64,000 nt of DNA from an uncultured Alphaproteobacteria bacterium (GTDB lineage Bacteria > Pseudomonadota > Alphaproteobacteria > RF32 > CAG-239): contig CAKQDU010000003.1 in the NCBI GenBank assembly GCA_934229625.1, forward strand, positions 64,426 to 128,425, in the 5' to 3' direction. The position numbers and the translations under genes were made by a program. Positions 11,924-52,778 of the stretch are shown here, in pieces. The first letter of the stretch is position 1, and each line of letters starts with the position of its first letter. The notes under the pieces were generated by a model that saw only the letters and a program-made list of their open reading frames with translations, did not search any database and was not told the origin of the DNA.

Positions 11924-12026
11924 ACCTGTATTATTATTTAATCCTATTACATAATATAAAAAAACACCACCTATACAAGCAACAGGTAATGTTTTTTAAC
12001 AAATATCTTTTTATTTTACTTAAATT

Positions 12027-13127
12027 CTACACATCACTTTTGCGTCGGTTGCAGTCTCGGCATAACATTTGGCAATTATCTATTGTTGTATGTCCACCTT
12101 TTGCGTACGGCGTAATGTGGTCTGCTTCCATTTCTGAAATATCAAAATGCTTGCCGCACTTTTTACAATTTCCGTTTTGCCTTTCATAGACAGTTCTTTT
12201 TTCACTATCCTTAAATGCTCTAATACTTAAACATTTTTCATCGCCCGACAGCACATATTCATATATACCCTTTTTAGAAGTTATCTCATCAAATTCATCT
12301 TTCATAAGTGTAGAAATCTGTTCTTCAATTTTTTTAGGGTCTAAATCTGCATCTTTATACTTGTTATATAACAGTCCCCACTTTTGACCTTTCATCTCTT
12401 TTCGGTATTTAGTGAAGATTGTTTCTATCCAATTTATTACTGATTGATAATATTCTTTAAGTTCTCTGGCTGTATGCTCTTGTTGGTGTATTCCCATATA
12501 ATCATCAATAGATTTAATGCCGTCTCTTTGCCTTATCCAATCTAAAACAGTTTCCAGATAGTCTTGCCTTATTGGTGTGCCGGTCATATATTTTTCACCA
12601 ATTTTATACGCTATGCAATTAGACTTACTAAAATATTTTTTAGCATCACTTAACCATTCACCGGTAAAGATAGCGTTTCTTAATTCTTGGTCAGTTAATT
12701 CTATTCCGGCAATATTGATTATTTTAAACCAATCCAATTTTTCACTATCCTTTCCCTCGCAAATATAAACCATCAATTCATAGTCCAATATTTTATCTTG
12801 TTCATCATTTTGCAGAGTATAGAAAAATTTACCATCTACAGAGAAATTACCTTCTAAATATTCGCAAATACTTATTGTTCGCTGCTGACCGTCAAGGAGT
12901 TCATAAGTACCATCTTCATTTAGACACCAATACATAACATTTAGAGGGAAACCTTTTTTGACAGTATTGATTACTTCTATCTTATTTTTATCGCCATAAA
13001 TATATTCTCTTTGGTATTTTGGTCTGATATTTAATTTGCCGCTATAACCGACAACCCCTTCTTCATCATTGTTTATATAACCGTCATAAACATCTCTGAT
13101 TTTGATTCTGTGTAATTCAATCTTCAT
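12027..13127 (-). CDS. DUF262 (ParB/GmrSD-like N-terminal domain) plus C-terminal HNH nuclease
   Basis: N-terminal IRPKYQREYIY and LLDGQQRTISI motifs are typical of DUF262. The C-terminal region CKKCGKHFDISEMEADHITPYAKGGHTTIDNCQMLCRDCNRRKSD is a canonical HNH (His-Me) motif. Confidence 0.7.
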   Translation of the reverse strand: MKIELHRIKIRDVYDGYINNDEEGVVGYSGKLNIRPKYQREYIYGDKNKIEVINTVKKGFPLNVMYWCLNEDGTYELLDGQQRTISICEYLEGNFSVDGKFFYTLQNDEQDKILDYELMVYICEGKDSEKLDWFKIINIAGIELTDQELRNAIFTGEWLSDAKKYFSKSNCIAYKIGEKYMTGTPIRQDYLETVLDWIRQRDGIKSIDDYMGIHQQEHTARELKEYYQSVINWIETIFTKYRKEMKGQKWGLLYNKYKDADLDPKKIEEQISTLMKDEFDEITSKKGIYEYVLSGDEKCLSIRAFKDSEKRTVYERQNGNCKKCGKHFDISEMEADHITPYAKGGHTTIDNCQMLCRDCNRRKSDV

Positions 13128-13128
13128 A

Positions 13129-14217
13129 TTATTTTTTCCTTCTAATTAAAACTCTGGCGTAAATGCTTGAATATAATTCCCCTGTTTCTACATCTTTAAA
13201 TGCTGGCGTTTTATCTTTAATTTGATTAAATTTTCTATAAAGAGTACCTTTCGCATTATATGTGAATTTTCCTGTCCCATTTCCATTTTTATCTAATATT
13301 TCCATCTTTTTATTATTAGTAAATTCGCAACTTCCAACTATTCCTAAATCAACAATTTCAAATTGGTCAGGACTATACTTATCTAAAAATGTAATAGGTA
13401 CCCCCATCACTCCATCATAATCCATAGGTATATCACTTGTTTTATCTACATTGATAGCATTATAATTTTCGTAATGAGGATATTCTTCCGGTGTATATTT
13501 TTTATATAAATCTAAATCTTCGTGTCTTTTTGTTGTTTCAATATTTGTATACCATACAACACCTGAAACACGAATCATTCCTTCTTTATGGTCTCCGGCT
13601 GTTGCATAATCTTCATAATATGGATTGATAAAATGTCCTGCACCACCTTTAAAGCCATATCCTAACCATATCTTGTTTTCTTTTATAAGTTTGAATATTT
13701 CCCTATATGTAATAGCATTTTGATGTCCTATAATTAAAAATTTTTTATTATATTTAATCAACTGTTCTACATACTCTCTAAACAATGAAAATGGTGGATT
13801 TGTAATAACAACATCTGCTTCTTTTAATAATTCAATACATTCATCACTTCTAAAATCACCATCACCCTTTAGAGACTTAACGCCAATTTCTTCTATATCA
13901 GGTACCCTGTTGCTATTTTTATCACCATAATATTCCAAATATACCGCTTGTTCGCTGTCATTTTGAGAAAATAAATCCATATTTTTGTTTTTATAACAAG
14001 TAGTAATCAGTTTTTTCAAACCTAAATGTTCAAAAGAATAACTGAAATAATGAAAAAAATTACTAACCCGCGGGTCATCACAATTACATAAAACAGTCTT
14101 GCCTTTTAAAAATGATTTGTAATGTTTCAGTTCATTTTCAATATCACAAAGTTGAGTATAAAACTCATCTTTTTTATTTCTTTTCGCTTGTTTTAAATTG
14201 TCATTTGCCATCTTCAT
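13129..14217 (-). CDS. N6-adenine DNA methyltransferase, EcoRI-methylase family
   Basis: From memory, the N-terminus (KQAKRNKKDEFYTQLCDIENELKHY...CDDPRVSNFF) and the motif IV VVITNPPFSLFREYVEQLIKYNKKFLII match M.EcoRI-type methylases. The stop is 1 nt from the start of the nuclease gene, so the two form an operon. Confidence 0.65.
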   Translation of the reverse strand: MKMANDNLKQAKRNKKDEFYTQLCDIENELKHYKSFLKGKTVLCNCDDPRVSNFFHYFSYSFEHLGLKKLITTCYKNKNMDLFSQNDSEQAVYLEYYGDKNSNRVPDIEEIGVKSLKGDGDFRSDECIELLKEADVVITNPPFSLFREYVEQLIKYNKKFLIIGHQNAITYREIFKLIKENKIWLGYGFKGGAGHFINPYYEDYATAGDHKEGMIRVSGVVWYTNIETTKRHEDLDLYKKYTPEEYPHYENYNAINVDKTSDIPMDYDGVMGVPITFLDKYSPDQFEIVDLGIVGSCEFTNNKKMEILDKNGNGTGKFTYNAKGTLYRKFNQIKDKTPAFKDVETGELYSSIYARVLIRRKK

Positions 14218-14236
14218 AAATGTCCGTTTATGAAGA
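14211..14236. promoter_or_regulatory. 26-bp hix-like palindrome overlapping the MTase start codon
   Basis: TCTTCATAAATG-TC-CGTTTATGAAGA: 11/12 matching half-sites around a 2-bp core. The MTase ATG (14215-14217, minus strand) lies inside it. Confidence 0.4.
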
Positions 14237-14311
14237 CATTCAAATAAGTATTTTTAATATCTTTATTTGAATCTTTGGAACAGCACGGATTTCCTCAGAT
14301 TTATTTTATTC

Positions 14312-14339
14312 TTGCAACTAAATTGCTATGTGTTATTAT
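14312..14339 (+). promoter_or_regulatory. Sigma70-like promoter (TTGCAA-16-TATTAT) inside a segment bracketed by an 11-bp inverted repeat
   Basis: ttgcaa ctaaattgctatgtgt tattat. It lies between the 11-bp inverted repeats at 14220-14230 and 14360-14370, and points toward the recombinase gene at 14425. Confidence 0.35.
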
Positions 14340-14424
14340 GCTAAAAAATTTATATCAACTAAACGGACATCTATTTTATATAGTCTTTTGATAAATACTT
14401 ATGTAATATCAAAGGATTATTAAA

Positions 14425-15021
14425 ATGATTTATTCTTACATTAGAGTCAGTTCAGACCAGCAAAATTGCGCCAATCAAAAATATGAGGTGGAATGTTATG
14501 CCGCTAAAAATAACATAACCATTAATGAGTACATTGAAGAAACAATATCTTCCAGAAAACCGCTTAAAGACAGAAAATTAGGCAAATTATTAAATAAACT
14601 TTCAAAAGGAGATATTGTTATCAGTACCGAAATATCCAGACTTGGGCGAAATATGTTAGAGGTTATGGGAATTTTACAAACTTGTTTAGAAAAAGATTGT
14701 GAGATAATAACCATAAAAGAAAACTATCATCTTGGGGCGGATATTCAGTCCAAAGTTTTGGCGTTTGCATTTTCTCTTGCCGCTGAAATTGAGCGTCAAC
14801 TTATTTCTCAACGCACAAAGGAATGCCTTAAACGCTTAAAAAATGAGGGTAAACATCTTGGCAGACCTTATGGTTTTACATACAAAAAACTAAAAAAGAA
14901 ACACAATAAGATAATTGATTTACTTAATAAAAAAGTATCCAAAGCGGAAATTGCTCGGCTGATGGGGTGTTCGTGGGCAACATTGCATAGATACATTAAA
15001 GAATGCTGTATAATCTCTTAG
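14425..15021 (+). CDS. Serine recombinase (resolvase/invertase family)
   Basis: N-terminal catalytic motif YIRVSSDQQ. Resolvase core ...LGRNMLEVMGIL.... C-terminal HTH (AEIARLMGCSWATLHRYIK). Confidence 0.8.
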   Translation: MIYSYIRVSSDQQNCANQKYEVECYAAKNNITINEYIEETISSRKPLKDRKLGKLLNKLSKGDIVISTEISRLGRNMLEVMGILQTCLEKDCEIITIKENYHLGADIQSKVLAFAFSLAAEIERQLISQRTKECLKRLKNEGKHLGRPYGFTYKKLKKKHNKIIDLLNKKVSKAEIARLMGCSWATLHRYIKECCIIS

Positions 15022-15575
15022 TGTGCTTGTTTATTCAAATATCCATAAACAGTCGGGCGTGTAATGTTAAATTGTCGGGCAATTTGGGCTATCGGTAAAC
15101 CTTGGTCGGCAAGTTTATTCAATTCTGCAACTTGCGCATCTGACAGTTTATTTTTACCGCCTTTGTATTTACCTTTTGCTTTAGCAATAGCCACGCCTTC
15201 TCTTACACGTTGATTGATGAGTTCTCGTTCCAACTGTGCTACCGCGCCAAGCATTGTCATCATCAGTTGTTGGTACGGGTCTTTTTTATCTGGAGAAAAA
15301 GTCAAATTCTCCTTATGAAAAATAACAGTCGCTCCGAGTTTGTTAATTTCTTCCACCAGATTCAACAAATCACGCGTGTTTCGTGCTAATCTATCCATTG
15401 AATGCACATTTACAATGTCGCCTTGTCTTAAATTGCTCATCATTGCCTGCAATTCCGGTCTATCGGTATTCTTACCCGATAATTTGTCTTCATATTCTCT
15501 ATCGCACGCAACGCCGGCTAATTGTCTTTCCGTATTTTGCACAACAGTTGAAACTCTTTTATAATTAAAAATCAT
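15018..15575 (-). CDS. Serine recombinase, Hin/Gin/Pin-like DNA invertase
   Basis: YKRVSTVVQNTERQ catalytic region, DRLARNTRDLLNLV, C-terminal HTH IAQIARQFNITRPTVYGYL. 185 aa. Overall similarity to the Gin/Hin family. Confidence 0.8.
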   Translation of the reverse strand: MIFNYKRVSTVVQNTERQLAGVACDREYEDKLSGKNTDRPELQAMMSNLRQGDIVNVHSMDRLARNTRDLLNLVEEINKLGATVIFHKENLTFSPDKKDPYQQLMMTMLGAVAQLERELINQRVREGVAIAKAKGKYKGGKNKLSDAQVAELNKLADQGLPIAQIARQFNITRPTVYGYLNKQAH

Positions 15576-16940: not shown

Positions 16941-17504
16941 TTATCTTGCCGGATATAAAATTGCACCGCGGTCAATTAAATAATTCGCAATATCCAACTC
17001 CATTTTTGCCAAAGCCGTGGTTAGCGGTGTTTGTGCCTGAACATTTAGCCAATTTATGTCCGCTCCCTCATTTATCAAATATGCCACGCCATTCAATTTT
17101 TGTTCTTTCGTCATATTATCATTTAATATCAACAAAATAAGCGCATTATTTCCAAACACATCAGTACGATATACAGAGGCTCCGTTATTCACTAAAAACT
17201 CCGGAATTTCCATATCCGTACACATATAACATGCCATTAAAAATAGTGAAGCGTGGCGGGCATTTATGGAATCATCTATGTTAAAATCTGGATTTTCTTC
17301 CAACATATTTTTGATTTCATCCATATCGTTAATGTTAAAACACTCGTCAACTTCATCATTATAAGGACGATAAACCGGAACTGTCTTCAAGCGTTTTTCT
17401 AAAGCGTCTAATTTTTTACGAATAGCCGGAAGTTGTTCCACCGGCACATATTTAATATAAGTATTATCAAAATTTGCGTTCATATACTTCCCCTTTGCTT
17501 TCAA
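16941..17504 (-). CDS. Hypothetical protein with C-terminal ankyrin repeats
   Basis: ...NGASVYRTDVFGNNALILLI...VAYLINEGADINWLNVQAQTPLTTALAKMELDIANYLIDRGA: 2-3 ankyrin repeats. Confidence 0.55.
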   Translation of the reverse strand: MKAKGKYMNANFDNTYIKYVPVEQLPAIRKKLDALEKRLKTVPVYRPYNDEVDECFNINDMDEIKNMLEENPDFNIDDSINARHASLFLMACYMCTDMEIPEFLVNNGASVYRTDVFGNNALILLILNDNMTKEQKLNGVAYLINEGADINWLNVQAQTPLTTALAKMELDIANYLIDRGAILYPAR

Positions 17505-18818: not shown

Positions 18819-19094
18819 AAAATTATGTTGTTTACGTACCAATTCTGTAACAGCCTCACGCCATAAGTCAACCGCAAAATCAAAGCGTTATTATGATCGA
18901 AAGTGTGTAAAAAAAACGACCGTTTAAAATGGACAGTTTTTCGGCTGTTTTTTGCAGTATATCATAATTTATGAAAAATGCAATAACATTATAATTTTAC
19001 GCTATTTTTTATTGATTTTCAGATGTTTTTCCGCCTCCGATTCCGTTGTGTAAAAATAACGGTCGTTTTTTTTACACAATTGAGGAGGAATAAG
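18819..19094 (+). repeat. Conserved ~260-bp upstream cassette, copy 1 (copy 2 at 36148..36426)
   Basis: Module Y (aaattatgttgtttac...taacagcctcacgccataagtcaaccgcaaaatcaaag) plus module Z, ending in the Shine-Dalgarno site and ATG of the downstream gene. About 85% identical to copy 2 apart from a diverged central part. Confidence 0.8.
18904..19078. promoter_or_regulatory. Perfect 21-bp inverted repeats (TGTGTAAAAAAAACGACCGTT / AACGGTCGTTTTTTTTACACA) flanking a 133-bp segment
   Basis: Left arm at 18904-18924, right arm at 19058-19078. The identical arms recur at 36235-36255 / 36390-36410 around a 134-bp partially diverged spacer. Confidence 0.7.
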
Positions 19095-20480
19095 ATGTTT
19101 AACTATTTGAAAAAATATAACATATTCTGTAGTTTAAAGCTTTTTGTAGTTTTGTATGCAGTCAGTATGTTTTCTATTTCTGCGGAAGCCAAAATTTGTT
19201 TTTTACCGGACAGCAGCTGCGGCACCGGTAAAATAAGTTCCGTAAAGCCAAACCCGTCGCAATGTATTTATAGCAGCATGGCTCAAGCCCAAAATGGCAT
19301 ATCAAGCTGCGAAAAAGCGTATAAGCAAAATTTCTGCTTTTACAGACGCTGCAAAACCGAAGACAATAATATATTTGCAGACGAAGCAAGCTGCAAAAAG
19401 AAAGCCAAAGCTGATAATTTAATCTGCGTAAGCTGCGGCGGCTGCTATAAAGTTACGCCGAAAACATGCCCGAGTGGGTACACGGCAGGCTTAACCACCT
19501 GTGCGGAAAAAGCCGGCTATACTGCAAGTTATTCAAGCAACGGCTATGCCGGATATAGTGTCTGCGGCAAGTGCAAATATACCATAAAACCGTGTGAAAG
19601 CGGCTATACGGTAGGTTTGGCCAGCTGTCCGGAAAAACAAGGTTATACTTCGAACTATTCCCGAAACGGAGTTTCCGGCGAGCAGGTTTGCGGCAAGTGC
19701 GACTACACGGCAAAAGGCTGCGCCAGCGGTTATACGGCTGGTTTGACAAGCTGCAGCGAACGGCGCGGCTATAATGCAAGTTATGCCAGCAATGGGTATG
19801 CCGGGGAGTTGGCTTGCGGCAAGTGCGACTACACGGCAAAAGGCTGCGCCGGCGGTTATACAGCAGGTCTGACAAGCTGCAGCGAACGGCGCGGATATAA
19901 TGCAAGCTATGCCAGCAACGGGTATTCCGGCGAGAAAATTTGCGGAAAATGCGACTACACGGCAAGAACTTGTCCAGATGGATATTCTACAAAATATAGC
20001 AGCGTCAGCGCCTGCGGAGAAACAGGAAGCAACGGCTGGAATTATGCTAGCAACGGCTATTCTGGGGAAGCTGTGTGCGGAAAATGTACAAAGAAACCAT
20101 GTCCTAGTGGGTATTATTATTGGTTATATAGTGAAAATATTAAAGATATGTTTAAAAGACCTTGCAATACAAGTACAAGATGTCCGGCAGATAGCGGATA
20201 TTATGAATATTATGAATCTCCAGGGTTTGGTGTCTATTATAATATGTGTAAAAATTATGGCTTTTGGGGGAGAGTTGCCGGTCGTAGCGGAGATGGTATT
20301 TGTTTTAAGACGGGCGATCGTCCTTGTCCTAGTGGTACAATAGGAGGTGGTGCTTCTAAGGCAAGTGAATATTGTGAAAAGACTTATGGTAAAAAATACA
20401 GATATAGATATAGAGAGGTAAAAAATCCAGATGGTAGTGATATGTGTACAGGTTATGAGCATTGTTGGAAATGTTATTGA
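19095..20480 (+). CDS. Secreted cysteine-rich tandem-repeat protein (461 aa from the ATG at 19095)
   Basis: Strong Shine-Dalgarno site gaggagga before ATG 19095 (the ORF-track start at 19023 is a non-ATG start upstream). Signal peptide MFNYLKKYNIFCSLKLFVVLYAVSMFSISAEA. At least 6 copies of a ~40-aa unit: CGKCDYTAKGCASGYTAGLTSCSERRGYNASYASNGYAGE. Confidence 0.75.
   Translation: MFNYLKKYNIFCSLKLFVVLYAVSMFSISAEAKICFLPDSSCGTGKISSVKPNPSQCIYSSMAQAQNGISSCEKAYKQNFCFYRRCKTEDNNIFADEASCKKKAKADNLICVSCGGCYKVTPKTCPSGYTAGLTTCAEKAGYTASYSSNGYAGYSVCGKCKYTIKPCESGYTVGLASCPEKQGYTSNYSRNGVSGEQVCGKCDYTAKGCASGYTAGLTSCSERRGYNASYASNGYAGELACGKCDYTAKGCAGGYTAGLTSCSERRGYNASYASNGYSGEKICGKCDYTARTCPDGYSTKYSSVSACGETGSNGWNYASNGYSGEAVCGKCTKKPCPSGYYYWLYSENIKDMFKRPCNTSTRCPADSGYYEYYESPGFGVYYNMCKNYGFWGRVAGRSGDGICFKTGDRPCPSGTIGGGASKASEYCEKTYGKKYRYRYREVKNPDGSDMCTGYEHCWKCY
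19690..19930. repeat. Two near-identical tandem 120-bp DNA repeats inside the Cys-rich gene
   Basis: The run gcggcaagtgcgactacacggcaaaaggctgcgcc...gcaagttatgccagcaatgggtatgccgg is repeated with about 6 substitutions. Confidence 0.8.
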
Positions 20481-33248: not shown

Positions 33249-34130
33249 ATGGAACAATTAAACAACTTGGATGTGGTGTTTTTGGTAATTGTCGGCGTTT
33301 CGGCGTTAGTTGCAATCGCCCGCGGTGTTACAAAAGAATTGCTGTCCATCACCGGATGGCTTTTAGCCGGTGTCTCGGTTTATTATTTATTGCCTGTTGT
33401 TGACCCAATTATGAAAAAATATATAGCCTCAGATGTGCTGTCCAACCTTGTTTCCGGTATGGTTATTTTAATTATGTTCTGTATTTTTTGGGTGTTGGCA
33501 GCCGACAAAATCAGTACGCAGATTCGTTTTAGCAAGCTTAGTTCGTTGGACCGTATCTTAGGCTTTATTTTTGGTATTTTCCGCGGCGTGATTATTGTAA
33601 TTTTGCTCCAGATTATGATTTCATCGTTGATTCCTGAAGAATCGCAAAAAGGTGTATTTGCAGAATCTCGCTATTTTAAACTTGCCGGAGATGCTTCCGG
33701 ACCGATTAAAGGTCTAATTCCGGAAAAATGGTTTGATGATTTGAAGGCAAAAGGAGAAAGTTTGGGTTTCGGTATTGTTAAAACAGAGGAAACTGAAGCT
33801 GATAAAGATAAAGAAAACACATCTAAGGCAGAAGATTCTAAGGATAAAACTCTTACTGAGGAAAATTCTTCCGACAATATTGGCAATGCGGCTGAGGTTG
33901 CCGGCGATGTTTTGAAGAAAAGCGGTGAGGAATTGTTTAATAAGCTTGCACAGCCAAAGCCTGAGGGAGAAAATAAATCTCAGGATGAAGGTTATAAAAA
34001 TGATGAAACATCGGATTTGGATAAACTCATGGATGAGTTGGAGGACAAGGTTGTGACAACCGATGAAAATTCGGCTCCGGTGAAAAATGACACTCCTAAA
34101 GAAATTAAAAAAATAGATGAAAAATTATAA
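33249..34130 (+). CDS. cvpA: CvpA-family membrane protein with an acidic/K-rich C-terminal extension
   Basis: LDVVFLVIVGVSALVAIARGVTKELLSITGWLLA...LDRILGFIFGIFRGVIIVILL matches CvpA (colicin V production protein). The radA-cvpA adjacency is a common conserved arrangement. Confidence 0.7.
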   Translation: MEQLNNLDVVFLVIVGVSALVAIARGVTKELLSITGWLLAGVSVYYLLPVVDPIMKKYIASDVLSNLVSGMVILIMFCIFWVLAADKISTQIRFSKLSSLDRILGFIFGIFRGVIIVILLQIMISSLIPEESQKGVFAESRYFKLAGDASGPIKGLIPEKWFDDLKAKGESLGFGIVKTEETEADKDKENTSKAEDSKDKTLTEENSSDNIGNAAEVAGDVLKKSGEELFNKLAQPKPEGENKSQDEGYKNDETSDLDKLMDELEDKVVTTDENSAPVKNDTPKEIKKIDEKL

Positions 34131-34197
34131 TTCCGGAATATTCATCAATAATTAAGGATAAGCCTCTGTTGTTTTTTGCATACAGAGGCTTATCAAT

Positions 34198-35028
34198 CTA
34201 AAATCCTACAGATATGTCGCAGTTTGTTTTTCCATCGCATACATCGCAGGCAGCTTTCATTTTAGCAAGAGTTGCATCACGTAAGCATTGAACATCAGGA
34301 GTGCAGAATTTATCGCCAGCAAAAATCTCGGTTGTCGGATTATGGTGCAGCCAAACTTTGTATGCTGCGGAATGCAGAGGATAGAATAAATCCTTAAATA
34401 GTGTCAGGCAGGTTTGTTTAGAAAAACCTTCCGAAACATTTTTTCCGTCGTCATTTTGGCGATATCCGCCGATGTTAACGCTAAATCCAAGTTCATTGTT
34501 GCGTGAAAATAAGGCTATTAAATTACCATTTGAATCCCATATACGAAATGTATCCATTTTTTCCCAGGTTGGCGGAATGAGGCCTGAAGCTTGTAAAACA
34601 TCCACAACTCCGACGGTTGATGAAGTCGGATTAAGATATTTCAAAGTATCAACATGTTCAAGCATACCATGCAAAAGAAAGGTATATTCATCTATCATCT
34701 TATCTATTTTCCACTTTTCCATCGCTTTGGAATATCCAGCGATACCGCCCACGCTTAGCACTCCAACAATGGCCAATACGCCGAGCATTTCAATCATTGA
34801 CCGACCGGCTGAAACCGCGTATAGCGGCGCATCTAAAGCGGTTTTACGCTGTCTCAAAAAATTCATGTACCTCCAATGTACACTAGGATTTTTCTCGCAG
34901 CTAGAAACCACTTTATCTACACCGCTCTCCGCAGTTTTGAAGATTTTTAAGGCGTATTGACGCACAACATCCAAACCCTTTAATGTGATGTTGTTTCCTT
35001 CGGCGTCATTGCGAGCAACGCGAAGCAA
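34198..35028 (-). CDS. Prepilin-like secreted protein, paralog 1 (start uncertain)
   Basis: Class-III (type IV prepilin-like) segment ...AVSAG|RSMIEMLGVLAIVGVLSVGGIAGYSKAM with Glu at +5. Conserved leader block GFGLLRVARND. Cys-framework C-terminal domain. The ORF-track start at 35028 is TTG. The in-frame region stays open upstream as far as the (AG)7 tract. Confidence 0.6.
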   Translation of the reverse strand: MLRVARNDAEGNNITLKGLDVVRQYALKIFKTAESGVDKVVSSCEKNPSVHWRYMNFLRQRKTALDAPLYAVSAGRSMIEMLGVLAIVGVLSVGGIAGYSKAMEKWKIDKMIDEYTFLLHGMLEHVDTLKYLNPTSSTVGVVDVLQASGLIPPTWEKMDTFRIWDSNGNLIALFSRNNELGFSVNIGGYRQNDDGKNVSEGFSKQTCLTLFKDLFYPLHSAAYKVWLHHNPTTEIFAGDKFCTPDVQCLRDATLAKMKAACDVCDGKTNCDISVGF

Positions 35029-35147
35029 TCCAAAACCTAGACCAGAAACGTCCGTCTGTTTCGTTCTGAACTTGTTATTTCCGAATGTGTGATTTTTTAC
35101 GCCGAACTCTGCAAAAACACGCTGAGCGGCAGAAAATACGCCTTTAA

Positions 35148-35204
35148 TCAGATGTTTAGGATTTGCAGAGAGAGAGAGAGACCTTTGAATAGCTTATTTT
35201 TCAT
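35148..35204 (-). other. 18-codon mini-ORF with a strong ribosome-binding site that runs through the (CT)7 tract and stops out of frame
   Basis: On the minus strand: tttagAGGAAAgaaagATGaaaaataagctattcaaaggt(ct)7gcaaatcctaaacatcTGA. Deleting one CT unit fuses this ATG in frame with the prepilin-like ORF. Confidence 0.6.
35167..35180. repeat. (AG)7 dinucleotide tract upstream of pilin-like 1 (identical tract at 36097..36110 upstream of pilin-like 2)
   Basis: Read directly. It is embedded in a ~120-bp module (…ctgcaaaaacacgctgagcggc…gatgtttaggatttgc(ag)7acctttgaatagcttatttttcatctttctttcctctaaa) that is conserved at both loci. Confidence 0.9.
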
Positions 35205-35304
35205 CTTTCTTTCCTCTAAAATTATATTGTTTACACTCTAATTCTATAACAGTCTTTTTTCATAAGTCAACCGGAAAAATCAAAGCGTTAGAATTGTGTT
35301 GCAT

Positions 35305-35970
35305 CTATTTTTTAAAACGAAATACAACATTGCATATATTGGTATTTCTTAGACACTCTTTACAGCTTTCGGTTATTTCAGGCATTGTAAGGTCTTTTAG
35401 GCATTTATACGTATCGTCATATTCTTCCATGTTTTGACATTCTGTAATAAAATGCGGAGCCGTTTTTCCTCCAGATGAATGAGAAGTGTTTTGTGGTGAA
35501 ATAAAATCTATACTACTATACATACCTTTAGCTAAATCTTTAATCAATGTAATGCAAAGTTCTTTTGAATAATCGGAAGATTTTTTATCATTGCTGAAGA
35601 TATTGATATCTACAATAAGAGTATTTTTTATGTTTATATATGGTGCCACTTTGTTTCCTAAAGTATCGGTTATATATATATTTGTAACTTCTTGCCATGT
35701 TTGAGGTACAAAGTTTAAGTCTTTTATAATTTGAGCTAAATACATAGGACGTTCTTTGTTATTTTTGATTAAATCATCTTTATACGATAATAAATCAGTA
35801 ATCATAAAACTATATTCTTCTATTGTTTTATTGACCTTAAATTTTTCCATAGCTTTGGAATATCCAGCGATACCGCCGACTGATAGAACGGCAATAATTG
35901 CCAGTACGCCGAGCATTTCTATCATAGAGCGTCCCACGCTGCAAACGTTATTGCGAGCAACGCGAAGCAA
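35305..35970 (-). CDS. Prepilin-like secreted protein, paralog 2 (start uncertain)
   Basis: ...SGLLRVARNNVCSVG|RSMIEMLGVLAIIAVLSVGGIAGYSKAM. C-terminal Cys framework (C...KCLKDLTMPEITESCKECL...CN). The ORF-track start is TTG. Confidence 0.6.
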   Translation of the reverse strand: MLRVARNNVCSVGRSMIEMLGVLAIIAVLSVGGIAGYSKAMEKFKVNKTIEEYSFMITDLLSYKDDLIKNNKERPMYLAQIIKDLNFVPQTWQEVTNIYITDTLGNKVAPYINIKNTLIVDINIFSNDKKSSDYSKELCITLIKDLAKGMYSSIDFISPQNTSHSSGGKTAPHFITECQNMEEYDDTYKCLKDLTMPEITESCKECLRNTNICNVVFRFKK

Positions 35971-36096
35971 TCCAGACCCCTTTATAGAGTTGCTACTGAA
36001 TGTGTTATTTTCGAATGTGTGATTTTTTGCGCCAAACTCTGCAAAAACACGCTGAGCGGCGAAAAATGCGCCTTTAATCAGATGTTTAGGATTTGC

Positions 36097-36110
36097 AGAG
36101 AGAGAGAGAG
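36097..36110. repeat. (AG)7 dinucleotide tract upstream of pilin-like 2
   Basis: Same module as 35167..35180. The same upstream mini-ORF and ATG (36132-36134 on the minus strand) are one repeat unit out of frame with the pilin-like 2 reading frame. Confidence 0.9.
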
Positions 36111-36147
36111 ACCTTTGAATAGCTTATTTTTCATCTTTCTTTCCTCT

Positions 36148-36426
36148 AAAATTATGTTGTTTACACTCCAATTCTATAACAGCCTCACGCCATAAGTCAA
36201 CCGCAAAAATCAAAGTGTTTTTTTAGGTTAAAAGTGTGTAAAAAAAACGACCGTTTAAAATGGACAGTTTTTAGGCTGTTTTTTATAGTCTAGCAAAGGT
36301 TGCCGGAATTTGCAATAACTTTTTATATTTGCGATGTTTTTTGCTGTTTTTACAACATTTTATTGCCGTCTGTTTCGCTGTGTAAAAATAACGGTCGTTT
36401 TTTTTACACAATTAAGGATAAATAAG
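36148..36426 (+). repeat. Conserved upstream cassette, copy 2, carrying the 21-bp inverted repeats (36235-36255 / 36390-36410)
   Basis: See copy 1 (18819..19094). It ends in the Shine-Dalgarno site aaggataaataag and the ATG of pilin-like 3. Confidence 0.8.
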
Positions 36427-37158
36427 ATGTTTAAGAGTATAGAATTTTTCAAAGGAAAGAGCAGGGGCGTGGGGTTTGGATTGCTTCGTCGTTACACTCC
36501 TCTCAATGACCTTTGCAGCGTGGGACGTTCCATGATAGAAATGCTCGGAGTTTTAGCCATTATCGGAGTGCTGAGCGTAGGCGGTATCGCCGGATATTCT
36601 AAAGCCATGATGAAATGGAAAATAAACAAAATGATAGAAGATTATACCATGCTGATGACTGGTTTAATGGAATATCAGGAAAGTTTATTTAAAACATATG
36701 CAGATTATGACAATAGATTTTTGGCTCAGTTTATTATAGACGCTAAACTGGTGCCGGAAACTTGGAAACAGGAAAATGAGTATTCGATAAATGATTCTCT
36801 TGGCAACAGAATTACACCATATGTTGATACAAAAGAAACAGGTGCTGCATTTACTGCTGATATATACATTGTGCCAAATGGAATAAATAAAGATTCGGAA
36901 TATGCTTATCAACTATGCGTAGCTTTAGCAAAAGATGTTGTTTATCCGCTAGCTGCAAATATGGGGTATGCATCATTATTTATTACAAATGATGCAATTA
37001 CTAACAGAAGTGGCTATATGGTTTATGCAAATAGTTGTTCCGATGCGGAAGTTAACAGGGTGAAATGTCTGTCGGAAATGACGTTGGCGGAAATTAGTAC
37101 AATCTGTAAATCCTGTGTAAAAAAAGCTCCTTGCAATGTTGGAATGAGTTGGAGATAA
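36427..37158 (+). CDS. Prepilin-like secreted protein, paralog 3
   Basis: ATG with Shine-Dalgarno site. MFKSIEFFKGKSRGVGFGLLRRYTPLNDLCSVG|RSMIEMLGVLAIIGVLSVGGIAGYSKAMMKWKINKMIEDY. C-terminal Cys framework ...C..L.KD....C...KCLSEMTLAEISTICKSCVKKAPCNV. Confidence 0.7.
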   Translation: MFKSIEFFKGKSRGVGFGLLRRYTPLNDLCSVGRSMIEMLGVLAIIGVLSVGGIAGYSKAMMKWKINKMIEDYTMLMTGLMEYQESLFKTYADYDNRFLAQFIIDAKLVPETWKQENEYSINDSLGNRITPYVDTKETGAAFTADIYIVPNGINKDSEYAYQLCVALAKDVVYPLAANMGYASLFITNDAITNRSGYMVYANSCSDAEVNRVKCLSEMTLAEISTICKSCVKKAPCNVGMSWR

Positions 37159-45464: not shown

Positions 45465-46004
45465 ATGAATATTTCAGAATTTAGAGATGGTATTTTTGCC
45501 TTGAGAACCAGAAGATTTGGCAATGTTGCTGAAATAATGATAAAGAAAATCTATCAATTAGAAGATTCGCATACTTTAGAATATGACAAATTTGATAAAG
45601 AAAACAATAAAAGAATTGAAATTAAATTTTCAACAGTAATGAAAGCAAATGGTAGAAAAATTGATGAAAAAAGTGTTATAGACCAATGCTTAAAAGCCAA
45701 TTTAGCTAACCGTGCAATGAAATATGCAGACATTGAAACATATTCTTTTGACTGCAATATTCAGCAGATAAAATGTGCAGAATTTGACATATTATACTAT
45801 GGTTTGTTTTTTGCTGATAAAATTTTGGTTTTCAAAATGACCTCTGAAGAAGTTAAAAATTGTCAAGGATATAGTAACAAGCAACATCGTAATAATGAAG
45901 GTGAAGGTCAATTCCATATTAATAATGATACATTAAAATATCATTTGGAAAACTACTTCATAAAAGATTTGGATTATGAAAGGTTATATAACATTTTGAA
46001 ATAA
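45465..46004 (+). CDS. Candidate type II restriction endonuclease (unknown family), 179 aa
   Basis: Sits between the C-protein gene and a convergent, overlapping DNA MTase gene, the canonical position of the R gene in C-R/M systems. No family recognised by eye. Confidence 0.45.
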   Translation: MNISEFRDGIFALRTRRFGNVAEIMIKKIYQLEDSHTLEYDKFDKENNKRIEIKFSTVMKANGRKIDEKSVIDQCLKANLANRAMKYADIETYSFDCNIQQIKCAEFDILYYGLFFADKILVFKMTSEEVKNCQGYSNKQHRNNEGEGQFHINNDTLKYHLENYFIKDLDYERLYNILK

Positions 46005-46748
46005 ATCTGATTTTATGCAGTTATCTATACGTTCTTTAGCAATGTTAAAATAATTTTCATCCAACTCAATACCGATAAAATTTCTGTTCAAATTTTTACA
46101 AGCTACACCGGTGGTGCCGGAACCCATAGTAAAGTCTAAAACAGTATCTCCTTCGTTGGTATATGTTTTAATAAGCCATTCCATTAATGATACAGGTTTT
46201 TGTGTCGGGTGTAAGTTTGATGTTAAAATATCTCGTTTAAAATTGACAATTTGCAAAGGGTATCTGATGCCTTTGTCTTGATATTCATTAGGCTTGCGGT
46301 TTTGAGAATCTATTAAAACTCCAAGTTTACCGTTTTTAATTTTGTTAGTTCTTAAAGGACCATCATATTTAACCATTTGCGGATTATATGTACATTGTTT
46401 GTTATAAAAGACATTTATAGTTTCAATTACTTTTGCCGGTCTTTTTTTTAACTGAAAAATATTTGTGGCTCGTTCTTTTTGCCAATAAATATCATATTTA
46501 TATTCATCAATATTTGAAATTCGCAGATAACTGTTAAAAGGTTCGTTGCCAAATAACAGAATCGGACTGTTTTCTTTTCGGATTTCTTTTAGGCGCTTCC
46601 ACATTTTATCAAGCGGAATAATAGTATCCCATGAGCAAGCTGTTGTTCCATAAGGAGGGTCTGTTATGATTGCATCTACTTTTATACCTTTTTTAATTAG
46701 TTGGTTCATAACGTCCAAGCAATCACCGTGAAATAAATCTATACACAT
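45984..46748 (-). CDS. DNA methyltransferase, N4/N6 class (beta group, DPPY motif)
   Basis: Motif IV IITDPPYGTT near the N-terminus. Motif I ...GDTVLDFTMGSGTTGVACKNLNRNFIGIE near the C-terminus (beta-class order). Convergent 21-bp overlap with the putative R gene. Confidence 0.8.
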   Translation of the reverse strand: MCIDLFHGDCLDVMNQLIKKGIKVDAIITDPPYGTTACSWDTIIPLDKMWKRLKEIRKENSPILLFGNEPFNSYLRISNIDEYKYDIYWQKERATNIFQLKKRPAKVIETINVFYNKQCTYNPQMVKYDGPLRTNKIKNGKLGVLIDSQNRKPNEYQDKGIRYPLQIVNFKRDILTSNLHPTQKPVSLMEWLIKTYTNEGDTVLDFTMGSGTTGVACKNLNRNFIGIELDENYFNIAKERIDNCIKSDLFQNVI

Positions 46749-48805: not shown

Positions 48806-49747
48806 ATGAATAACGCATTAATTTTAAATGAAGACTATTTAGAGTTTCATGCAAAGCCAATTCTAAAGTGGGCTGGTGGTAAGGGTATGCTTTTGCCGCA
48901 AATCGCGGATTATTTACCGGCTAAATTGAAATTCGGTGCAATAAAACGCTATATCGAGCCGTTTGTTGGTGGCGGGGCTGTTTTCTTTGAACTGACAAAT
49001 AACTATAATTTGGAGGATGCTTATTTATTTGATGTTAATCCAGAACTGATTATACTTTATAATGTGGTTAAAAATAACGTTGAAGATTTGATTGCTGAAT
49101 TGTCAGTTTTACAACAAGCCCATAATGATGCTCAGGATAGAACGGTCTTCTATTATACTATTCGTGATGAGTATAATCAATTTGATAAAAATATGGATGC
49201 CAATAAATATACAACCGATTTCATTAGGCGTGCGGCTTTAACTGTTTGTTTAAATCGGACTTGCTTCAATGGTTTGTTTAGGGTTAATTCAAATGGGATG
49301 TTTAATGTTCCTATTGGAAAATATAAAAATCCGCGGATTTTGGATGAGAGTAATCTAAGGGAAGTTTCAAAAGCTTTGCAATGCGCAACAATTTTGCAAA
49401 CTGATTTTGCTTCTGCATTGGACTATGTAACTTCGGATACCTTCATTTATTATGACCCACCATATCGACCGATTAACGATAGTTCATTTAATTCTTATGC
49501 GGTAGGTGATTTTGATGATAATGAACAAAGACGTTTAAAAGATGTTTTTGCTAAAGCTAATGAATCGGGAGCTTTGCAAATGCTGAGTAATTCTGATCCG
49601 ACTAATTACAATCCTAAAGATATGTTTTTTGATAGTTTATATCGTGATTACAAGATTCATAGAATTTGGGCAAAAAGAATGATTAACTCCAATCCTGATG
49701 GCCGCGGAGGGGTAAGGGAACTTTTAATTACAAACTATGGAAAATGA
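48806..49747 (+). CDS. Dam-family (DpnM-like) N6-adenine DNA methyltransferase, probable GATC specificity
   Basis: PILKWAGGKGMLLPQI (SAM-binding motif of the D12 class) and YYDPPYRP (motif IV). First gene of a DpnII-type cluster. Confidence 0.85.
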   Translation: MNNALILNEDYLEFHAKPILKWAGGKGMLLPQIADYLPAKLKFGAIKRYIEPFVGGGAVFFELTNNYNLEDAYLFDVNPELIILYNVVKNNVEDLIAELSVLQQAHNDAQDRTVFYYTIRDEYNQFDKNMDANKYTTDFIRRAALTVCLNRTCFNGLFRVNSNGMFNVPIGKYKNPRILDESNLREVSKALQCATILQTDFASALDYVTSDTFIYYDPPYRPINDSSFNSYAVGDFDDNEQRRLKDVFAKANESGALQMLSNSDPTNYNPKDMFFDSLYRDYKIHRIWAKRMINSNPDGRGGVRELLITNYGK

Positions 49748-50529
49748 AAGAAATTTATAATTTATATTGTGCAGACTGTATTGAAAAATTAAAAGATTTT
49801 CCGGAAAATACTTTTGATATGATTTTTGCGGATCCGCCTTATATGCTTTCAAACGGCGGTATAAGCTGTCATAATGGACGTGTTGTTTCCGTTAATAAAG
49901 GCGATTGGGATGAAAGCAAAGGTTTAAAAGAAGATTTTGAGTTTCATAAAAAATGGCTGGAGGCTTGCAGGCGGGTATTAAAGCAAAATGGTACGTTGTG
50001 GGTATCAGGAACATATCATAGCATTTATCAATGTGGCTTTGCTATGCAAGTATTGGGCTATCATATTTTAAACGATATTTCGTGGTTTAAGCCAAATGCA
50101 AGCCCAAATATGTCATGCCGATATTTTACTGCTAGTCACGAAACTTTGATTTGGGCAAGAAAAGATAAGGCATATCGTCACTATTTTAATTATGATTTAA
50201 TGAAAAATGGCGATTATCCAAAAGATTTTATCAAAAAGCCTAATGCACAAATGCGTAGTGTGTGGGCTATCGGAACTCCAACACCAAAAGAAAAAGTGTT
50301 TGGCAAACATCCTACACAGAAACCGGTAGAATTGCTGGAAAGGATTATTTTAGCTTCAACAAAAGAAAATGATTTGATTCTAGACCCGTTTATGGGAAGC
50401 GGTACAACCGGAGTAGTTGCAATGAAACTAGGCCGTCAATTTGTAGGAATTGAAAAAAATCCGAAATTTATTGCATTGGCAGACAGAAGAATTTTTGATG
50501 CATATCAACACAAGGAGAATAAAGAATGA
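49744..50529 (+). CDS. Second DNA methyltransferase of the DpnII-type system (DpnA-like, N4/N6 DPPY class)
   Basis: IFADPPYMLSNGG near the N-terminus. PFMGSGTTGVVAMKLGRQFVGIE near the C-terminus. Start overlaps the upstream stop (ATGA). Confidence 0.8.
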   Translation: MKEIYNLYCADCIEKLKDFPENTFDMIFADPPYMLSNGGISCHNGRVVSVNKGDWDESKGLKEDFEFHKKWLEACRRVLKQNGTLWVSGTYHSIYQCGFAMQVLGYHILNDISWFKPNASPNMSCRYFTASHETLIWARKDKAYRHYFNYDLMKNGDYPKDFIKKPNAQMRSVWAIGTPTPKEKVFGKHPTQKPVELLERIILASTKENDLILDPFMGSGTTGVVAMKLGRQFVGIEKNPKFIALADRRIFDAYQHKENKE

Positions 50530-51869
50530 ATGAAATTGAAAACTTTGTGGACCAATTATTATCATTTGCGCAACGTGATACAAATGGTAAATTGACAATA
50601 TCTACCATTCAAAACATTATAAAAGAAATGAATAGTTTTTTATATACAAAATCTGGTAAGATTGGAAAAACTAATATTTTGGGTGAGAGTTTTGAATATT
50701 TGTCCGATTTTCATAAATTCTGGGAAGAAAACCATAAAGTTATCCTAAATGCTAAAATCAGCGAAGAACAATGTATAAAAGTTGCGAATTCATTACATGA
50801 TGTATTTATACGTACTAAAGGACAAGTCTTCTCTCAATTATGGTCAACAGGCAATGTATCAAATGAAAATATCTGTAAAATTAGATTTCTTACAGCTAAT
50901 CAGGATTTTAAAGGTTCTCGTAATTTTCAGAAATTTTTAGATATTTTTAACACAGATAACTCCATATTTGATGTAAGAAAAATAAATGAAGCTCCTGATG
51001 ATTTTGTTAAATCTATCAAAATTTCTAACTTATCTCAGAATGATAAAAGAATTAGTTATGCTTTAAAGGCTGCACAATTTATTATGAAAAATGAATGTAA
51101 ACCTATTGAACTTGCCAAGAAATTTAATAATGATGCAGACCTACTACGCAAAGCTTTAATAAATGAACAAGGAATGGGATATGGAAACAAAAAGGCTGAT
51201 ATGTTTATACGAGATATGTTTGTGTTGAAAATATGGCCGGATCTTATAAATTTTGATAAGATAGATGTTGCTAGTGATATAAATACAGTAAAAATAGCGT
51301 TGAGAACGGGAATATTAAAAACAGCAATACCTCTACTTTCAAGCTTTTTAGATATTTTTTGTTATCAGTATGGATATATTGATGAAATGTCAGCGAATGC
51401 TTGGAGATGTGTTTGGAAAATATGGAATGATACATATCCTACTGAAACTGTAGCAAGTCCTGCATTATTAGATTTTTTTATATATAATGTAGTAGGTAAG
51501 CAGTTTTGTAAGGATAATTTATATATTTTTGAAGGTGATAAATGTCATCATACATTTAAATGGCATTCAGCTCGTAACAAAACATGCCAAGAGTGTTATA
51601 GAATTGGTAAACTTAATTCGAAAGCTCATAAAATTAATCAAGTTTTACCATGCACAGATCCCAATGGTGATATTGCAATATGCCAAACAGAATTTGTAAA
51701 ATCAGAAATAGCTAATCCTAATTATACTAATTGCCCTTTTAAGGATATTTGTATCGCTAATGGTACTACTAGATTACAACCTCCGAAATCTATAAGTATT
51801 AAGGGGCAAACAGGTTGGATATCAGCATATGCTGATAAAGATAGTGGTGGCGGAGGTTTAATGGCGTAA
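50526..51869 (+). CDS. Hypothetical 447-aa protein inserted between the methylases and the endonuclease of the DpnII-type operon
   Basis: Translationally coupled on both sides (overlapping stop/start). Contains a Gly-rich loop GMGYGNKKADMFIRDM that may be helix-hairpin-helix-like, and a C-terminal cluster of 8+ Cys (CHHTFKWHSARNKTCQECY...PCTDPNGDIAICQTEF...CPFKDIC). No confident family assignment. Confidence 0.4.
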   Translation: MNEIENFVDQLLSFAQRDTNGKLTISTIQNIIKEMNSFLYTKSGKIGKTNILGESFEYLSDFHKFWEENHKVILNAKISEEQCIKVANSLHDVFIRTKGQVFSQLWSTGNVSNENICKIRFLTANQDFKGSRNFQKFLDIFNTDNSIFDVRKINEAPDDFVKSIKISNLSQNDKRISYALKAAQFIMKNECKPIELAKKFNNDADLLRKALINEQGMGYGNKKADMFIRDMFVLKIWPDLINFDKIDVASDINTVKIALRTGILKTAIPLLSSFLDIFCYQYGYIDEMSANAWRCVWKIWNDTYPTETVASPALLDFFIYNVVGKQFCKDNLYIFEGDKCHHTFKWHSARNKTCQECYRIGKLNSKAHKINQVLPCTDPNGDIAICQTEFVKSEIANPNYTNCPFKDICIANGTTRLQPPKSISIKGQTGWISAYADKDSGGGGLMA

Positions 51870-51878
51870 GGAGAATAA

Positions 51879-52778
51879 ATGATGAAAAATAATTCTGCTT
51901 TTAAAAATATTTTAAATTGTAATAATGATGATGAAGTATTTTCGTATCTGATTAGTACTCTAAAAGAGACAATCAAATCGTGGGACTATTTTGTAAATTG
52001 GAAAAAAGTTATTCATAATTACCGCGAAGTTGAACGCTCATTAAATTTATTAAATACTTTGGTTGGTAAAGAAAATATTGAAGAGGAAGCTTTATCACTG
52101 CTTACAGACTATCCTCAAATTATAGGTGTAGTTCCTGCATTATTGGCGGAAAGAGAAAAGAAAATCAGTTTATTGGTTACTCCTAATAATTTTGAGGTCA
52201 GAAGATTTGACTTTTCAAAACCAATGTTGGCAAAAGATGGTGTTTTGTTTTTAAAAGAAAGCGGATTTTTAAAACTTATTTCAGACCGCAATATTAAATC
52301 TATTCCGGATTATTTTATAGGTGTAGAGGTTGGTCTTGATTCAAACGGCCGTAAAAACCGCAGCGGAATATCTATGGAAAATTTGGTTGAATTCTTTGTA
52401 AAAGATATTTGCGGGAGAAATAATTATGAATATATTGCCCAAGCTACTGCAGATAAAATTAAAGCAAAATGGAATAAAAATATTACAGTTACGAAGTCAT
52501 CTAAAAGAATTGATTTTGCAATTAACACGCCTCACAAACTTTATTTAATTGAAACAAACTTTTATGGCGGAGGCGGTTCAAAATTGAAATCTACAGCTGG
52601 AGAATATGCCGATATTTACCATCAATGGACAAATGATGGACACCAATTTATTTGGATAACTGACGGTTATGGCTGGAAAACAACACAACGCCCATTGCGT
52701 GACACATTTAACACGACCGATTATATCATCAATCTTGATATGATACAAAAAGGTGTATTAGAGGAATTGTTGAAATAG
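51879..52778 (+). CDS. DpnII/MboI-family type II restriction endonuclease (GATC)
   Basis: From memory, the blocks IGVEVGLDSNGRKNRSGISMENLVE, YLIETNFYGGGGSKLKSTAGEY and WITDGYGWK match R.DpnII. Ribosome-binding site aaggag. 299 aa. Confidence 0.75.
   Translation: MMKNNSAFKNILNCNNDDEVFSYLISTLKETIKSWDYFVNWKKVIHNYREVERSLNLLNTLVGKENIEEEALSLLTDYPQIIGVVPALLAEREKKISLLVTPNNFEVRRFDFSKPMLAKDGVLFLKESGFLKLISDRNIKSIPDYFIGVEVGLDSNGRKNRSGISMENLVEFFVKDICGRNNYEYIAQATADKIKAKWNKNITVTKSSKRIDFAINTPHKLYLIETNFYGGGGSKLKSTAGEYADIYHQWTNDGHQFIWITDGYGWKTTQRPLRDTFNTTDYIINLDMIQKGVLEELLK

Follow-up and report, generated by a model that had tools for sequence, protein, structure and literature searches.

A candidate contingency family of pilin-like envelope proteins with (TC)n-dependent reading frames in uncultured gut Alphaproteobacteria

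Repeat-driven contingency loci typify host-restricted pathogens, among them Neisseria, Haemophilus, Helicobacter, and Campylobacter; in Bacteroides, the gut commensals studied most closely, invertible promoters mostly take that role. In Neisseria, the CTCTT repeats of opa and the poly-G tract of pilC act as translational on/off switches in the signal-peptide region. Here we describe three paralogous genes in a 64-kb stretch of DNA from an uncultured alphaproteobacterium (contig CAKQDU010000003.1; the whole stretch is called the window below). We think it fairly probable, at about 0.7 for the family and its switch, that they belong to a contingency multigene family of pilin-like envelope proteins of uncultured gut Alphaproteobacteria and that two of the three are switched by (TC)n tracts. 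The further steps of prepilin-type cleavage and surface display are less certain, and we would put them near even odds.

In Helicobacter pylori, CT repeats in the 5′ coding region of hopH/oipA and hopZ set the reading frame (PMC3960876). The Hop genes (hopH/oipA, hopZ, sabA, and babB) resemble the genes described here in their CT/TC unit, its position in the first leader codons, the dependence of frame on repeat number, and membership of a paralogous surface-protein family that recombines among itself (PMC3960876). They differ in being epsilonproteobacterial and in encoding beta-barrel outer membrane proteins with Sec signals and short leaders, whereas the leaders considered here are long and modular. 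The likeness to Neisseria opa and pilC lies in a leader-coding repeat that switches each member of a multigene surface-protein family; the Neisseria repeats are a pentamer and a homopolymer rather than a dinucleotide, there are 11 to 12 opa genes compared with at least 35 family genes here, and the protein class is another one.

On the protein side, type IV pilins and the pseudopilins of type II secretion systems (T2SS), such as Escherichia coli PpdD, GspG, and GspH, share with the family Gly at −1, Glu at +5, about 20 hydrophobic residues, the sequence A11-I12-I13-G14-(I/V)15-L16, and Y24, and the family resembles them further in the short basic leaders of some of its members and in a predicted N-terminal helix of about 50 residues followed by a globular domain with probable disulfides. 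Unlike type IV pilins, the family has Arg rather than Phe or Met at +1, leaders of up to about 200 residues, and dozens of gene copies scattered through each genome away from any machinery operon; the machinery itself was not found in the 1.46 Mb sampled. The DUF1559 (H-X9-DG) proteins of Planctomycetes and Verrucomicrobia likewise number dozens of paralogs per genome, combine a prepilin-type N terminus with a variable domain, and are mostly encoded away from machinery. They differ in their C-terminal domain and in a canonical G↓F(T/S)LIEL site (the arrow marks the putative point of cleavage throughout), and we know of no repeat-tract switch in that group. The switch mechanism and the pilin-type signal are thus each of a known kind. 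What appear to be undescribed are the occurrence of both together in a set of at least 35 genes of a commensal gut alphaproteobacterium, the Arg at +1, the leaders of up to about 200 residues built from in-frame repeat modules, and a head domain without structural relatives.

Three paralogs of a large gut alphaproteobacterial family

A preliminary description of the window had reported three paralogous open reading frames (ORFs), and all three were found where it placed them, with a common N-terminal motif and cysteine domain. As mechanically called, they occupy 34198-35028 on the minus strand (paralog 1, TTG start at 35028), 35305-35970 on the minus strand (paralog 2, TTG start at 35970), and 36334-37158 on the plus strand (paralog 3, ATG at 36334). 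The frames stand and the starts do not, since these are only the first start codons in each frame. Paralog 3 most likely begins at the ATG at 36428 (MFKSIEFFKGKSRG...), as dozens of homologs do, which would make the gene 36428-37158 (+), with its Gly-1 codon at 36523-36525 and a predicted mature protein of 210 residues. In paralogs 1 and 2 the sole start codon with a good Shine-Dalgarno (SD) sequence lies at 35204 and 36134, respectively, and is out of frame in the window; their Gly-1 codons are at 34806-34804 (paralog 1, mature part 34803-34201) and 35934-35932 (paralog 2). All three paralogs carry G↓RSMIEMLGVLAI..GYSKAM followed by a six-cysteine C-terminal domain, and the motif G-R-S-M-I-E-M-L-G-V-L-A-I is encoded at only three sites in the window, which are these three genes. 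The paralog 2 protein is identical to database protein P0088.

The family is very large. With paralog 3 as the query, at least 7874 proteins were recovered at significant scores, and none of them carries a Pfam domain; a profile search of 1.84 billion representatives returned 5462 clusters at 50% identity (E ≤0.001), 3795 of them at ≤1e-10. At least 564 family loci are present in a species-representative genome collection. Every genomic match is in a metagenome-assembled genome (MAG) of an uncultured gut alphaproteobacterium; the hosts are Hadza and Nepali people, deer, and other animals, and the taxonomic labels of a few bins are wrong. One MAG (CAKQRZ01) holds at least 35 distinct family genes in 264 kb of its DNA, 15 of them with tracts. 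Many family copies sit at contig ends, as expected because repeats break assemblies. A few members are named by NCBI as “type II secretion system GspH family protein” or “FimT/FimU,” and most are nameless; we found no literature on the motif or on the secretion systems of this gut alphaproteobacterial lineage. In an alignment of 42 members, five cysteines are invariant and at least 90% of the sequences retain a sixth, in line with the five to six noticed originally. In mature paralog 3 numbering they are C132, C172, C182, C195, C198, and C204, and other conserved residues are P78, W81, D91, and G94-N95. The size of the family, together with the on/off switch described below, fits the preliminary proposal of a variable surface protein family rather than a housekeeping pilin.

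A prepilin-type N terminus and a cysteine-rich head

When family sites were collected with motifs that left the position in question free, Gly was found at −1 in 155 of 165 sites (with all four Gly codons in use), Glu at +5 in 155, followed by about 20 hydrophobic residues, and Arg at +1 in 154. The remaining 10 or so sites deviate at nearly every scored position and were taken as spurious matches of the loose motif. Among the database proteins collected, 258 read G↓RSMIE, and +1 is only rarely H, K, S, or Q. The Arg at +1 to which attention had been drawn, in place of Phe or Met, is therefore real and nearly invariant. The residues A11-I12-I13-G14-V15-L16 and Y24 stand in register with E. coli PpdD and GspG, and when PpdD residues 6 to 46 were searched by tblastn against 1.46 Mb of DNA of the lineage, the alignment began at exactly Gly-1 (36% identity, E 0.004). 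A comparison of 130 distinct genes shows variation at positions −11 to −2, where the commonest residue reaches at most 35%, and near invariance from −1 to +28 despite saturation of synonymous codons: Arg+1 is encoded by CGC, CGT, CGG, CGA, and AGA, and Ser+2 by six codons from both Ser families (TCN and AGY). A looser detection motif placed the boundary of conservation at the same Gly. Selection at the protein level thus begins exactly at Gly-1, as a cleavage site predicts, and translation must start upstream of the Gly. We conclude that the N terminus of the family is homologous to the class III (prepilin-type) signal and helix of pilins, so that the resemblance to pilins and pseudopilins noticed at the outset has held up.

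AlphaFold models the full-length protein as one helix over residues 6 to 50 followed by an alpha/beta domain (predicted local distance difference test [pLDDT] 83.8, predicted template modeling score [pTM] 0.80), and models the globular domain alone with pLDDT 87.9 and pTM 0.86. Foldseek searches of the PDB with the full-length and head-only models recovered no solved pilin (best E 0.014 to 0.03, template modeling [TM] score <0.3); the matches were noise, mainly Cas7-type chains at TM 0.2 to 0.28. A profile search of PDB sequences also gave no pilin, only spurious matches to gp41 coiled coils. The modeled head domain thus matches no solved fold and may have a new one.

These Foldseek results are one of several points that weigh against a pilin, and some of the points would favor a different protein: one with a Sec signal cut by signal peptidase I after ...GYSKA↓M, or with an uncleaved anchor, whose Cys-rich domain would be periplasmic or membrane tethered, with neither fiber nor prepilin peptidase. 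The sequence S-K-A at +25 to +27 satisfies the −3/−1 rule of signal peptidase I. The curated hidden Markov models for pilin N termini match at the right place and stay below their cut-offs (TIGR02532, 10.8 to 12.4 bits against 16.3; PF07963 [N_methyl], 9.9 to 11.3 bits against 21.2). Where pilins have a hydrophobic, N-methylatable residue (Phe, Met, Leu, or Val) at +1, the family has Arg, and to our knowledge Arg at +1 is not known among processed pilins. Pfam scans of 40 window ORFs identified no pilus or T2SS gene. Regular-expression scans of 1.27 Mb of related DNA for the peptidase A24 signature GxGD[..]K and the GspE Walker A motif, and tblastn searches of the 1.46 Mb with E. coli HofB, HofC, and GspC, D, E, F, L, M, and O, returned an orphan ATPase only, with no homolog of peptidase A24, of PilC/GspF, or of secretins. 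The sample covers perhaps 15 to 20% of any one genome, so the absence of the machinery is not established.

The ATPase in question, a 317-residue member of the T2SSE family, lies 256 nucleotides upstream of window position 1 (L097:8792-9745), divergent from a fadL-like gene at 32-1282 and followed by a gene for an FxLYD-domain protein. It is PilT/ComGA-like (E 1e-32) and scores far below every curated cut-off. In all four genomic contexts examined it is an orphan, never beside pilus or secretion genes, which again counts against a pilus; its conservation in the lineage speaks against a protein with no pilin-type route. Further objections to a Sec signal come from the N terminus itself. Twenty-eight positions are nearly invariant over more than 5000 clusters in the face of saturated synonymous change, a residue-by-residue conservation that Sec signals lack; the invariant Gly-1 and Glu+5 and the in-register AIIGVL and Y24 match the pilin consensus; and the predicted helix runs unbroken through the putative signal peptidase I site to residue 50. 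We therefore regard a Sec-type protein as unlikely. The suggestion that the proteins are pilus tip or adhesin subunits stands unproven, neither confirmed nor refuted, given a head that matches no solved pilin and no A24 peptidase, platform protein, or secretin in the window or the 1.46 Mb.

Each member consists of a variable leader, the invariant Gly-1, a near-invariant pilin-type helix of 28 residues (R1 S2 M3 I4 E5 ... A11 I12 I13 G14 V15 L16 ... Y24), and a divergent alpha/beta domain of about 180 residues, probably locked by three disulfides. The hydrophobic helix would insert into the inner membrane N-in/C-out, a prepilin-type peptidase tolerant of Arg+1 and of long leaders would cut after Gly-1, and the Cys-rich domain would then face the periplasm or be displayed at the surface, perhaps on a pilus-like fiber. 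Cleavage, export, and surface exposure are all inferred, and this too must be counted on the debit side.

(TC)n tracts, mosaic leaders, and 5′ modules

The description of the leaders in the preliminary account missed their central feature, a (TC)n tract on whose length the reading frame of paralogs 1 and 2 depends. Upstream of these genes lie two copies of a 224-nucleotide direct repeat (35066-35289 and 35996-36219, both on the minus strand), which are 92% identical. Each contains, in order on the minus strand, a promoter-like site TTGACT-N18-TAGAAT (35270-35241 in copy 1, 36200-36171 in copy 2), an SD sequence and start codon (AGAGGAAAG-N4-ATG), the codons AAA AAT AAG CTA TTC AAA GG, and (TC)7T; copy 1 also holds the beginning of the leader frame (ANPKHLIKG...). 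The start codons are at 35204-35202 (MKNKLFKG, paralog 1) and 36134-36132 (paralog 2), and the tracts, at 35167-35181 and 36097-36111 on the minus strand, begin 8 codons past them. Since the dinucleotide unit is not a multiple of three, tract length sets frame. With the (TC)7 alleles of the window, translation from the MKNKLFKG start stops after 18 codons, so that both genes are OFF here; lengths of n = 7 or 8 generally end translation after 17 to 18 codons. Going upstream, the first stop in the pilin frame of both genes overlaps the ATG region, and the frame joins the ATG at n = 6 or 9. Simulated tract lengths gave paralog 1 an uninterrupted ORF of 334 residues with (TC)6 and 336 with (TC)9, and paralog 2 one of 275 and 277, the full ON-state frames being 34198-35204 and 35305-36134, both on the minus strand. 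An exact look-up of these predicted ON-state proteins in the protein collection found none. Paralog 3 has a tract-free leader of 33 residues (MFKSIEFFKGKSRGVGFGLLRRYTPLNDLCSVG) and is always in frame.

Related assemblies contain the alternative alleles. L084 and L085 agree over 7128 nucleotides with 0 mismatches, their sole difference being a 4-nucleotide (TC)2 indel in the tract of the second of two family genes, and L088 and L094 agree over 1938 nucleotides with 0 mismatches and differ by one TC unit. A locus downstream of rpsI has a tandem pair of family genes. In five of the contigs examined, the tract of gene 1 has n = 6 and the called product has 375 residues (P0124, 19 contigs in all); in eight others it has n = 7 and the product is called as 312 residues (P0122, 23 contigs). 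The tract of gene 2 varies separately, with n = 6, 7, or 8. Proteins beginning MKNKLFKG(LS)2-3AN... are called only where n is 6 or 9. P0124 and P0077 represent n = 6 (MKNKLFKG-LSLS-ANPKH...), and P0052, P0101, and P0110 represent n = 9 (-LSLSLS-AN...), so in-frame alleles of both lengths exist. Tract length therefore decides whether the MKNKLFKG start codon is in frame with the pilin domain. In 1.36 Mb, moreover, (TC)n with n of at least 6 is almost confined to family 5′ regions.

On the counter side, the variation was seen between assemblies of different samples and not within one clonal population, and in-frame alleles are a minority. A census of 56 distinct tracts gave 7 with n = 6 (5 of which read through to the pilin motif), 35 with n = 7, and 14 with n = 8; in two unbiased DNA sets the counts were 3, 26, and 9, which is to say that 3 of 38 tracts are in frame. 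Either most copies are OFF, and so silent, or another start is used. That most copies are OFF at any one time is typical of contingency families.

The use of another start is the substance of a second rival explanation, in which the long leaders are untranslated 5′ regions full of repeats, the real start lies near Gly-1, and the MKNKLFKG-(TC)n element is a separate mini-ORF with little or indirect effect. Candidate starts near the Gly are the TTG in GLLRV, the ATG of MNFLRQRK, and the short MKQNQFG type. The first two are possible internal starts within leader modules and count against a switch at the distal ATG: in paralog 1, MNFLRQRK is preceded by GGAGGTACATG, with GGAGG 3 nucleotides ahead of an in-frame ATG that lies 21 codons before the cleavage site. 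The 35 and 14 out-of-frame tracts among the 56 speak for this explanation, and so do the leaders of 7 to 10 residues that look like those of classical prepilins (MYKNFEKG, MQKRKSCDFG, and MKQNQFG) and precede mature proteins nearly identical to others. There are also leader classes of 13 to 15 residues, of 31 to 33 residues (MFKSIEFFKGKSRG..GLLRRYTPRNDVCSVG, the paralog 3 type), and of 50 to 207 residues, the last composed of recurring modules, e.g., ...PAPVILGLVPRIL..., ...KYPSPDAKASPSP..., and ...WCDKILGTGPSMTGG.... Leaders are thus not the stable features of 30 to more than 100 residues that had been supposed: near-identical mature proteins have leaders of 7 to more than 160 residues, and a single 90%-identity cluster holds five leader types.

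What tells against untranslated leaders is the state of the reading frame. Counting back from Gly-1, the pilin frame has a median open length of 55 codons, compared with 9 and 7 in the other two frames, and in 26 of 107 genes it is open for at least 100 codons, a length that neither control frame reaches in any gene (0 and 0). Because this openness is far beyond chance and confined to the pilin frame, the long leaders are not gene-caller artifacts; had repeat modules been inserted into untranslated DNA, there would be no reason to expect a single frame to lack stops. In tract-bearing genes the upstream pilin frame stays open exactly up to the ATG and tract, where it closes, and the ATG is linked to it only by n = 6 or 9, alleles that are observed. 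Untranslated leaders are accordingly rather improbable. In the mechanism that we favor, slipped-strand mispairing in the (TC)n tract, 8 codons past the only ATG preceded by a ribosome-binding site, would set the expression of a large subset of the family, paralogs 1 and 2 among them. When n is 6 or 9, translation would run on into the pilin-like domain through a leader that is long, modular, and free of stops (ON); when n is 7 or 8, as happens in the window, it would stop early (OFF); and paralog 3 would be constitutively in frame through its tract-free leader. A third proposal, that the leader and Gly are of the bacteriocin type or of the type found in ribosomally synthesized and posttranslationally modified peptides and that the genes encode secreted toxins or peptides, can draw only on the variable leader ending in Gly and the Cys-rich C-terminal part and is barely credible, there being no double-glycine motif (−2 varies, S, F, L, V, and A occurring at similar frequencies), a 20-residue membrane helix after the Gly in a product of about 200 residues with a folded alpha/beta domain, and no C39-peptidase ABC transporter or modification enzymes beside family genes in the contexts seen; the bacteriocin alternative named in the preliminary description is therefore unsupported.

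The leaders are mosaics, and their parts recombine. Paralog 1 has an extra module of about 63 residues ending ...MNFLRQRKTALDAPLYAVSAG, which corresponds to an insertion of about 190 nucleotides relative to paralogs 2 and 3 and bears out the insertion of about 60 residues already noted. A 34-nucleotide palindromic module, GGATTGCTTCGCGTTGCTCGCAATGACG, lies at 35004-35037 on the minus strand, where it is translated in the leader frame as GLLRVARND, and recurs in the paralog 2 leader at 35946-35979; a variant in paralog 3 (36478-36510) reads GLLRRYTPLND, so that the element sits within the leader frame of all three paralogs. In the leader block reported as GFGLLR(V/R), GFGLLRV is translated palindromic DNA, and paralog 2 reads GSGLLRV. 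The leader modules resemble, in sequence, palindromic intergenic repeats of Alphaproteobacteria. Rickettsia palindromic elements (RPEs) are short palindromic repeats inserted in frame within coding genes, and they are alike in occupying ORFs without breaking them; unlike RPEs, the modules here pile up in a leader that is probably removed and, in the DNA sampled, occur almost only at family 5′ regions.

That near-identical mature proteins carry so many leaders, and that P0077 joins a paralog 1 leader, extra module included, to a paralog 2 mature domain, agrees with the earlier view that the 5′ regions recombine. The near-invariant N-terminal coding segment and the shared 5′ modules may serve as the exchange points at which leaders and mature domains are shuffled. 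Another arrangement is present in L003:1-1900. Compared with L001 and L004, it has an identical paralog 2 gene followed by a different family member (210 residues, tract n = 8), and the neighborhood is porin/UDG/lexA in place of paralog 1 and cvpA. This could reflect a genuine rearrangement between family loci, or else the assembly may have been joined across the 224-nucleotide repeat.

The repeat modules that had been seen in the intergenic regions are now mapped as the 224-nucleotide direct repeats, the 34-nucleotide palindromes, and a 24-nucleotide inverted repeat. The last belongs to a second type of 5′ module, which lies ahead of paralog 3 (36232-36413, +), encloses promoter-like sites, and is bounded by the inverted repeat at 36232-36255 and 36390-36413 (96% complementary). 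We considered an invertible promoter at this repeat and rejected it, as all of about 15 homologous copies are colinear and no inversion was seen. An A8 run in the module falls in a stretch (36236-36258) that has a homologous counterpart in the promoters of family genes from more distant genera. Those promoters are conserved as TTGCA-A(9-13)-CGGTTTAGAAT, with the poly-A run inside the −35/−10 spacer (L051, L063, L068, L070, L072, L074, L077, and L079), and the run might be a second, transcriptional, length-dependent switch. The divergent promoter cassette of paralogs 2 and 3 recurs at 18830-19102 (79% identity over 235 nucleotides), where the paralog 3 module corresponds to 18871-19102 and its 24-nucleotide inverted repeat lies at 18903-18926 and 19049-19072, and there fronts an ORF (19095-20480, +) for a Cys-rich repeat protein with a Sec signal (...GYTAGLTSC...GKCDYT...). 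The 5′ modules are therefore common to at least one other class of secreted protein.

Genomic setting and biological meaning

The three-paralog region is flanked by cvpA (33249-34130) and a glutamine amidotransferase/peptidase C26 gene (37266-38114), and the wider neighborhood consists of housekeeping genes (the Bat operon, tsaE, mlaE, radA, ruvAB, and pheST). Between the convergent stops of cvpA and paralog 1 lies a perfect 10-bp hairpin at 34160-34191 (AAGCCTCTGT ... ACAGAGGCTT, 12-nucleotide loop), which is probably a bidirectional terminator. A terminator scan of the region reported none under its criteria, the loop of this hairpin exceeding the limit of the scan, and Rfam scans at gathering and E-value thresholds found no RNA family in the region.

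Elsewhere in the window, a low-GC stretch (23 to 31%) at 7528-15575, beside a tRNA gene (7528-7598), is a probable integrated island. It contains an integrase (7774-9543), an unannotated ORF of 774 residues, a GmrSD/HNH nuclease (12027-13127), an EcoRI-type adenine methylase (13129-14217), and two serine recombinases/resolvases (14425-15021 and 15018-15575). Several DNA methyltransferases are encoded at 45984-46748 and 48806-52778, including those of a DpnII-type restriction-modification system, which comprises a Dam-like methyltransferase (48806-49747), an N6/N4 methyltransferase (49744-50529), an unannotated ORF of 447 residues, and a DpnII endonuclease (51879-52778). On the minus strand, 1407-4271 encodes a 954-residue protein of ankyrin and MORN repeats, and 16941-17504 encodes a small ankyrin protein. 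These proteins are eukaryote-like and unusual for a free-living bacterium, which is suggestive of host interaction.

If the family is what we propose, uncultured and widespread gut Alphaproteobacteria carry a very large repertoire of repeat-switched, pilin-like genes. Its likely purpose would be stochastic on/off switching and antigenic variation of a surface repertoire under pressure from host immunity or phage, and the family may thus offer a handle on how these bacteria meet either. Tract length would be an easily scored marker of within-host population dynamics in existing metagenomes, and the family repeats explain why assemblies break at these genes. The work adds an unannotated protein family, with no Pfam model and more than 5000 clusters, whose fold is confidently predicted and so far unmatched, and it raises the mechanistic question of whether a prepilin peptidase can accept Arg at +1 and leaders of 100 to 200 residues. 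A more far-reaching interpretation, which we put forward as doubtful, is a hitherto unrecognized surface-variation system in which dozens of pilin-like genes, with a head fold unlike solved structures and an Arg+1 site, would be switched individually by (TC)n tracts lying within long, translated, disposable leaders of mobile palindromic modules. Processing and display of the proteins would then need no classical type IV pilus or T2SS machine and might depend instead on, for instance, a divergent peptidase together with the orphan T2SSE ATPase. If true, this would be a new route of envelope protein display and not a pilus.

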